Notes: generated by a model not told the origin, from the letters alone. A stretch of 64,000 nucleotides of DNA from Faecousia sp. (GCA_045537615.1 JAZSPV010000060.1:6852-70851); one strand, 5' to 3'; shown: positions 37,791 to 37,977, counted from the first letter of the stretch. Numbers and translations are program-made.

Positions 37791-37977
37791 ATCCAAGCCG
37801 CAGGCTTGGCATATCATCACCGCGCGAAGTGCGGCGCATATCATTAGCCCTTCGGGTTGAATATCATCACGGCATAGCCGTGTATTAGTTTTCCTGCGTC
37901 TTGATGAGATGCAATGCTTCGCATTGATGATATACCGTAGACAAGCTGCGGATGATATACAAGGCTTCGCCTTGATT
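37791..37977. repeat. multi-hairpin palindromic element (7 hairpins, 3+3 mirrored ATATCATCA/TGATGATAT spacers)
   Basis: Read directly from the sequence; see findings. Confidence 0.85.

Follow-up and report, generated by a model that had tools for sequence, protein, structure and literature searches.

The seven-hairpin element at positions 37791-37977 of a 64,000-nucleotide stretch of Faecousia sp. DNA (hereafter the window) is the structured middle of a non-coding cassette head docked directly behind a tRNA-Gly gene. The head is a conserved unit of about 255 bp, delimited at 37747-38000 by alignment of its copies, in which a bidirectional terminator, the mirrored ladder of hairpins and a sigma-70 promoter succeed one another. 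The ladder is shared by a family of small cassettes, widespread behind the tRNA genes of gut Clostridia, that seems not to have been described before; a full-text search of the literature returned no description of this family beyond Gut-1.

The ladder and its place in the cassette head

An earlier note on this DNA described seven hairpins joined by conserved linker words, and its coordinates match the sequence base for base (Table 1), as does its reading of H5 and H7 as GCGAAGC on the minus strand. Words of the ATATCATCA/TGATGATAT type join the hairpins at a regular spacing of 23-27 bp. Those of the right half are the reverse complement of the ATATCATCA-type words of the left half, and the two arms form inverted repeats that are mirror images on opposite strands. 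The ladder opens with TATCCAAGCC... and closes with ...GCCTTGATTTG. The exact 9-mer word occurs four times in the 64-kb window, three of them inside the ladder, against a mean of 0.86 in shuffled sequences, and none of 100 shuffles reached four. The fold of the plus strand beats that of shuffled sequences with z-scores of -3.75 (RNA) and -4.33 (DNA); the corresponding values for the minus strand are -2.50 and -2.97.

Table 1. Features of the tRNA-Gly cassette locus, in window coordinates
Feature	Position	Strand	Basis or remarks
tRNA-Gly promoter	37632-37659		Promoter scan
tRNA-Gly(GCC), docking point	37672-37747	+	ARAGORN; Rfam tRNA, 65 bits
Head module 1, bidirectional terminator hairpin	37747-37789	.	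19-bp arms, 5-nt loop, A-run before, T-run after; inverted repeat I1, 95% complementary
Head module 2, mirrored ladder H1-L1-H2-L2-H3-L3-H4-centre-R1-H5-R2-H6-R3-H7	37791-37977	.	Sequence; repeat families D1-D3, I2, I4, I6, I9; covariation, 38 copies
H1	37793-37809		Ladder hairpin
L1, left linker	37811		ATATCATCA
H2	37820-37834		Ladder hairpin
L2, left linker	37838		ATATCATTA
H3	37847-37857		Ladder hairpin
L3, left linker	37861		ATATCATCA
H4	37868-37882		Ladder hairpin
Conserved centre block of ladder	37893-37903		CCTGCGTCTTG
R1, right linker	37902		TGATGAGAT
H5	37912-37926		Ladder hairpin
R2, right linker	37925		TGATGATAT
H6	37935-37951		Ladder hairpin
R3, right linker	37951		GATGATAT
H7	37960-37974		Ladder hairpin
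Head module 3, cassette promoter	37972-38000	+	TTGATT (37972-37977)-17-TATAAT (37995-38000), TG extended -10; promoter scan, 10/12 matches
IRL, left inverted repeat of cargo frame	38001-38022	+	Transcript start; 18/22 match to reverse complement of 38735-38756
Cargo, XRE-type HTH protein	38129-38737	+	202 aa, membrane segment; Pfam HTH_3, E 5e-13
IRR, right inverted repeat	38735-38756	+	Starts at stop codon; aligns with conserved AAATTCCAATTTGTCGAACAG-type motif behind cargo in other cassettes
Cassette tail, degenerate copy of the family's two-repeat tail module	38757-38819	+	Aligns with tails before internal heads in arrays; boundary from same-genus loci
Terminator of convergent ABC transporter gene	38820-38858		Begins where tail ends

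The element had been placed downstream of the terminator of the tRNA gene. Its position is as described, but that terminator is not merely the tRNA's: since copies align from about 37747 to 38000, it belongs to the element. The inner stem with its GTCTAC core is conserved family-wide, and the outer stem varies with compensatory changes, also in other families. In an independent sample, a hairpin of at least 8 bp followed by a T-run lies directly upstream of the ladder in 60 of the 68 assessable heads; the GTCTAC core is present in 29. The same core is present in the terminators of Gut-1-type heads, and in three copies (L027, L041 and L140) the terminator loop is flipped, reading GTAGA and not TCTAC, as if the hairpin had been inverted.

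At the other end of the head, the -35 hexamer of the predicted promoter overlaps the 3′ arm of H7, which makes up half of it. This promoter is kept at the equivalent place in other copies, 30-32 of the 68 heads fitting a strict pattern, and is absent from some ladders (e.g. L042, L044 and L048). In a promoter scan around the ladder, no candidate read into it and the minus strand had none; the one promoter close by is directed away from it. The earlier idea of a free-standing repeat does not fit these data, as the ladder is single-copy here and most of its other copies head a cassette, with a terminator upstream and a promoter downstream in the proportions given above.

Docking at tRNA ends, cargo and spread of the family

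The tRNA-Gly gene and its promoter are conserved across same-genus genomes, similarity ends at about 37747-37756, and the cassette begins one base past the tRNA-Gly CCA. Between the tRNA gene and the stop codon of the convergent ABC-transporter ATPase gene, same-genus genomes have a gap of about 80 bp, consisting of the tRNA's own terminator and that of the transporter, as opposed to 1128 bp here. The insert (37748-38819) is a 1.07-kb cassette made up of head, IRL, XRE gene, IRR and tail. Its exact junctions, like the putative mobile unit itself, are drawn from distant comparisons, and at edges set in this way no target-site duplication is visible for the ladder, the head or the cassette. The window contains no second copy of the tRNA-Gly 3′ end, no att-type repeat flanks the cassette, and the neighbouring genes include no integrase or recombinase. 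An integrase-borne tRNA island was rejected on the grounds that there is neither an integrase nor a flanking direct repeat of the tRNA 3′ end. The genes around the cassette are of the housekeeping kind (transglutaminase-like, amino-acid ABC transporter, murC, ddl and vanW). The transglutaminase-like gene (36532-37599), upstream of tRNA-Gly, is absent from at least one genome of the genus (L011), which makes both flanks of the tRNA gene variable.

Docking behind tRNA genes is a property of the family. Of the 76 heads that could be assessed in the independent sample, 48 lie 31-45 nt, the length of one terminator, past a tRNA gene on the same strand, and these tRNAs span 25 anticodon types. One head sits behind a tmRNA gene and eight behind 16-22 nt that directly repeat the 3′ end of a nearby tRNA, up to and including CCA. 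For most of those remaining, the preceding element is a pseudo-T-arm module or a cassette tail of the conserved type, with ...CA before the A-run of the head in either case. An extra copy of the tRNA 3′ end is found nearby for only two of the 48 tRNA-docked heads. Copies number from one to about 20 per genome, nearly all at tRNA ends or cassette junctions; in one genome (G081), some 15-20 copies form tRNA-head-gene-head-gene arrays at six tRNA loci.

Several related arrangements were seen at tRNA ends. "Echo" modules of the tRNA 3′ end (G000 C5, C12, C31, C33, C36 and C53:82887; L206-L210; L101, L106, L120, L126, L128, L137, L142 and L160) consist of the tRNA terminator, an inverted copy of the tRNA's own T-arm, about 100 nt with two or three hairpins (with recurrent GACAGTCCGGnGGACTGTC and GCCGCCGACGGCTTGACGGAGGCGAACCT) and 12-28 nt in which the tRNA 3′ end, CCA included, is directly repeated. 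Their fold is a closed stem enclosing three hairpins; some are tandem, none matches an Rfam family, and they serve as docking points for ladder heads just as tRNAs do. At the other tRNA gene of the window, tRNA-Ser (28956-29047, minus-strand context), a 15-nt inverted copy of its own T-arm lies just past the terminator (28900-28914) and is followed by a promoter and a RidA-like gene, with neither a ladder nor a direct 3′-end copy; this spot starts with TTTTTTATCC, which resembles the start of a ladder head. A second kind of junction, resembling a degenerate T-arm (GAGTTCGAATTCATACGCAAAAC...ATATCTTTTTTGTAGCCCATAGACA; L042, L044, L051, L102, L115, L148 and L150), sits between a ladder and the next head, where it replaces promoter and cargo.

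The cargo of the window cassette has orthologues in two same-genus genomes (90% amino acid identity in G018 and 89% in G023), where it occupies another locus and lacks head, frame and tail; this genome has no further XRE orthologue. Nucleotide homology to the G018 gene (87% identity) covers 38030-38739 only, between IRL and IRR. The cargo is native to the genus, and it looks as though a foreign head and frame had been loaded with a resident gene. In both G018 (L081) and G023 (L080), the XRE gene stands behind a CDP-alcohol-phosphatidyltransferase-like gene. An IRL-type leader consensus follows the promoter in many copies of the head. Family cargo genes are diverse and mostly without assigned function, the commonest being a PF05635 four-helix-bundle gene (23S rRNA intervening-sequence protein), which was found near 16 of 81 heads and in 12 of these 16 cases starts 160-295 nt past the H1 anchor. 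About 15-20% of heads of this ladder type carry such a gene. The head in the window does not, and three of the five PF05635 genes of this genome lie directly behind ladders.

Within its own 1.68-Mb, 87%-complete genome the ladder is single-copy. Among 401 genomes sampled from the same order, the unit is present in 56, belonging to 14 of 30 families; none of the other sampled genomes of its own family has it, and it is absent from behind tRNA-Gly in 36 same-genus genomes. Its best match, 86% identity over 216 nt, is a copy in another family. By these sequence comparisons the head is shown to be foreign to this genus. An exact match to the first 29 nt of the ladder is present in at least 120 stretches of species-representative genomes, every one of them from an uncultured Oscillospirales-type MAG of animal-gut origin (Acutalibacteraceae, Oscillospiraceae, Faecousia, Flemingiibacterium and others). 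Plasmid and phage collections gave no ladder match. One of 2.9 million viral contigs contains the 29-mer near its end (L205, IMGVR_UViG_3300018493_002828:367-395), which may represent host DNA. For strain-level alleles, exact-protein look-ups returned nothing and a species-specific 23-mer had no match in JGI metagenomes. The ladder is one copy here and a family elsewhere, about two thirds of the copies starting right after a tRNA CCA.

Selection on the hairpins and the possible function of the ladder

Conservation of the ladder was assessed on 38 distinct homologous copies, aligned, with pairs counted for the seven local hairpins. In these hairpins 93.6% of the cells are paired, as compared to 24-43% with slid partners, and 28 pairs have changed on both sides. 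Covariation scores 0.191, versus 0.088 for shuffled data, and none of 500 shuffles reached the observed value. Selection on the local hairpins is firmly shown. The earlier description of mirrored halves whose stems differ in sequence and still pair is borne out, as structure is kept and stem sequence is not. Linker words are nearly invariant and the hairpin spacers vary. H5 and H6 each alternate among two or three unrelated stem sequences, and hairpin units are permuted in one copy (L058), missing in three (L047, L051 and L060) and added in another (L049). Permuted units and a variable number of hairpins suggest a recombination-like behaviour.

Pairing is almost exclusively of the Watson-Crick type. 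Across 44 copies, the stems contain 1266 Watson-Crick pairs (96%), 29 G.T pairs, 7 A.C pairs and 15 mismatches, wobble pairs amounting to only about 2%. In the left-arm stems, read on the plus strand, G.T pairs outnumber A.C pairs 29 to 7. The loops are polar in the same 44 copies: left-arm loops are GCA or GAA in 63 cases and TTC in 3, right-arm loops TTC in 42 and GAA in none. GNA triloops therefore face outward-in on opposite strands, the top one in the left arm and the bottom one in the right.

The mirrored words had also been thought to pair, folding a single strand into a long rod with side hairpins (L1:R3, L2:R2 and L3:R1). RNAalifold indeed draws L1:R3 and L3:R1, yet those columns never vary, and the few variable linker columns are mostly mismatched (28 of 37 copies at L3:R1, columns 99:145; 14 of 37 at L2:R2, columns 66:172). 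With the would-be pairing columns invariant and the variable ones mostly unpaired, the rod was not accepted. For a possible pairing of the H1 5′ arm with the centre block, the sole compensatory change (L032) restores H1 itself instead. Columns 99 and 145 of alignment A2 (window 37863 and 37908) form a pattern of their own: the innermost linkers vary there by one base, ATATC/ATCTC and GATAT/GAGAT, and in 27 of 36 copies one of the two, but not the other, has the C:G variant, a mismatch far above the expectation for chance pairing.

Because of the placement between terminator and promoter, the mirror symmetry, the near-exclusive Watson-Crick pairing and the shuffling of units, we tentatively favour, with slightly less than even confidence, a function of the ladder as a folded-DNA recognition platform for cassette docking or exchange. 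According to this model, the predicted terminator would end transcription of the tRNA in place of the tRNA's own terminator, and the predicted promoter would drive the inverted-repeat-framed cargo gene, after which comes the conserved tail. The ladder itself would act as DNA and not as a transcript. Its seven GC mini-hairpins could be extruded as small cruciforms, or fold when the DNA is single-stranded, leaving the conserved 9-nt words single-stranded, as linkers presented in mirror orientation. The folded ladder would then be recognized by a trans-encoded factor responsible for docking, exchanging or loading cassettes at "...CA" ends, in which respect it might be functionally comparable to the attC site of integrons. 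The excess of G.T pairs in the left arm on the plus strand counts against a DNA function, as it would suit a plus-strand RNA, and so does the classing of Gut-1 as RNA. A broader proposal, possible but on balance doubtful, is an integron-like system of gut and rumen Oscillospirales without an integrase of its own, which would dock at the CCA of any tRNA, tmRNA or copied tRNA 3′ end, stack in arrays and load native genes into a fixed frame, with the ladder as the folded-DNA site of the enzyme and Gut-1 as one half of one type.

The placement of the ladder just upstream of the promoter, with the H7 arm contributing half of the -35 hexamer, could alternatively be read as a cis DNA structure that controls or insulates the cassette promoter and has no role in mobility. 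Supercoil-sensitive mini-cruciforms, or a protein-bound upstream region, would then separate the cargo promoter from a highly active tRNA gene, in keeping with the terminator directly upstream in most copies, the strict promoter downstream in 30-32 of 68 and the equivalent layout of the Gut-1-type heads of this genome. We consider this unlikely, since it leaves unexplained the docking at CCA, the tandem arrays, the permutation of hairpin units and the spread of a near-identical head across families, and since ladders such as L042, L044 and L048 have no promoter to insulate.

The covariation of the hairpins would also be expected of a structured non-coding RNA like Gut-1, arising either from tRNA transcription that runs on or from a promoter that went unrecognised, whose single-stranded AUAUCAUCA/UGAUGAUAU words would bind a partner, for instance as a sponge for the four-helix-bundle cargo protein. 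The plus strand does fold better as RNA than the minus strand, its left-arm G.U pairs exceed A.C pairs, and Gut-1 has been classed as RNA (PMC2864571). However, a 19-bp terminator stands directly upstream, the only promoter nearby points away and none lies on the minus strand. Moreover, a single RNA strand would have no evident need of mirror symmetry or mirrored loop polarity, wobble pairs are scarce, and the rod that would justify the mirrored words is unsupported. An RNA function is thus improbable.

Less probable again is that the 9-mers serve as double-stranded iterons, three direct and three inverted, for a DNA-binding protein (a regulator, a partition-like protein or the four-helix-bundle protein), the palindromic spacers being secondary. 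Near-invariant words between variable spacers, their regular spacing and the location of three of the five PF05635 genes behind ladders would be in line with such binding sites, and ladder types within one genome differ in their word (GTGAAAT, GTGATAT, GTGAAGT), as if each had a separate reader. Binding to duplex DNA gives no reason, however, for GC-hairpin spacers kept by compensatory change, and the PF05635 gene accompanies only a minority of the heads of this type and is missing from that in the window.

The search for an associated enzyme counts against the favoured model, as does the lack of a target-site duplication or att-type repeat around the cassette, and it also bears on the last alternative. 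No protein recurs from -3.5 to +4.5 kb of 81 heads, integrases and transposases included: clustering of 1572 ORFs gave only spurious ORFs that overlap the ladder itself. No tnpA or tnpB lies near the ladder in the window or recurs near the 81 heads. The sole Y1_Tnp gene of this genome belongs to a complete IS200-type IS (140 bits; G000:C23:37549-37905, L071) whose own end hairpins, CCCCCGGC...GCCGGGGG, are unrelated to ladders, and no ladder was found within 1.5 kb of 10 Y1_Tnp loci in five genomes. The ladder-rich genome G081 encodes a RAYT-like protein (29.5 bits to Y1_Tnp) with no ladders around its gene, and a homologue is absent from the 87%-complete genome studied here. The reverse transcriptase domain PF00078 is absent from four of five ladder-bearing genomes, and IS110-type PF01548 gave no match above the cut-off in any of the five. 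The earlier preference for folded single-stranded DNA over RNA survives in part: a DNA-level role is the more plausible one, but the proposed link to HUH enzymes and REP sequences is not supported, as the only Y1 gene here is that of an ordinary IS200 and none of the 10 Y1_Tnp loci has a ladder nearby. Although conserved words and palindromes in inverted clusters recall REP and BIME, GNA triloops favour DNA hairpins and one ladder-rich genome has a RAYT-like gene, a selfish non-autonomous REP/BIME, REPIN or MITE repeat, moved on folded single-stranded DNA by a Y1 HUH enzyme (RAYT or IS200-type), is the least probable reading, given the single copy here, a ladder not seen moving apart from terminator and promoter or cassette junction, the unrelated IS200 hairpins, the lack of a RAYT-like homologue and the failure to find a terminal duplication.

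Gut-1 and other known systems

No Rfam family matches the ladder, in answer to the possibility, raised earlier, that it belonged to one already characterised. The nearest relative is Gut-1 (RF01706), which was classed as a (probable) RNA from human-gut sequences only, with no function or context given (Weinberg et al. 2010, PMC2864571). Its model has no match on 37000-38800 at E <=10, and a scan of the genome at E <=1 hit 18 places, mostly mirrored pairs, which do not include the ladder (C53:44641-44836). Other copies of the ladder type score just 17-26 bits against an Rfam gathering threshold of 50 bits. As the model does not score the ladder, it was filed as a sister type of Gut-1 and not as a member. 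Like the ladder, Gut-1 consists of mini-hairpins (three or four) joined by a repeated 7-nt word, occurs in gut Clostridia and has an equivalent layout and setting. Gut-1 pairs in this genome run from tRNA and terminator through three or four units of word plus mini-hairpin, a centre and the mirror arm to a promoter and a gene, at least one pair having a PF05635 gene; in Gut-1-type heads, as in the ladder, the centre repeats the H1 3′ arm. They differ in the word, GUGAAAU as opposed to AUAUCAUCA, and the Rfam model spans one arm only. About ten mirrored ladders with other words (GTGAAAT, ATGAAAT, GTGATAT, GTGAAGT) emerged from a de novo scan of the genome, which showed the ATATCAT type at the window locus only.

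Gut-1, an orphan without context or function since 2010, and its sister types can thereby be assigned a genomic role, that of heading cassettes behind tRNA genes. This points to a widespread route by which small accessory genes could be added, expressed and possibly exchanged in abundant uncultured gut Clostridia, a group that to our knowledge is not known for integrons. A docking enzyme, if it exists, would recognize any tRNA gene by its 3′ end although the cassette carries no integrase, and this mode of site selection would be new. In addition, the head is a naturally occurring, compact "terminator, insulator, promoter" part, and the 29-mer, the inverted-repeat frame and the tail provide sequence handles for the system.

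The cassette shares with islands of tRNA-targeting tyrosine integrases the insertion of foreign DNA at the 3′ end of a tRNA gene that stays intact. It differs from them in having no integrase and no direct repeat of the tRNA 3′ end, and in that one head is used at 25 tRNA types. The 23S rRNA intervening sequences are framed by a processing stem. They resemble the family in the PF05635 (S23p/IVP) cargo and in an inverted-repeat frame around it, but the cassettes lie behind tRNA genes and not within rRNA helices, and the cargo in the window is an XRE gene.

REP/BIME (REPIN) elements are, like the ladder, intergenic inverted clusters of units made of a short conserved word and a palindrome. In the ladder, however, stems differ from unit to unit, copies number one to about 20 and not hundreds, and the place in the head is fixed; in contrast to REPINs, no association with RAYT was found, the Y1 gene here being IS200-only and the 10 Y1 loci free of ladders. 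The ends of IS200/IS605 elements carry hairpins on the same strand, unlike the ladder arms, which are mirror images on opposite strands. The pneumococcal BOX element (boxA-boxB(n)-boxC) is modular and intergenic, can affect the expression of neighbouring genes and is not known to be docked at tRNAs. It appears similar in combining conserved end modules, which in the ladder are H1, H7 and the centre, with variable internal units, and apparently dissimilar in sequence, and it belongs to a different host group.

A possible functional parallel is the integron. The family has no integron integrase or attI (in the window neighbourhood and at the 81 heads), docks at the CCA ends of tRNAs, and equips each cassette with its own terminator and promoter. 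An attC site is one bulged stem, as opposed to seven mini-hairpins, and attC boxes (RYYYAAC...GTTRRRY) were not found at the ladder ends; a lone GTTGAAT (37857-37863) is not conserved in other copies. In both systems the cassettes are small, mostly single-gene and arranged in same-orientation tandem arrays from a fixed docking point, and the attC site, like the ladder, is an imperfect palindrome that bounds the cassette and is conserved in structure rather than in sequence.
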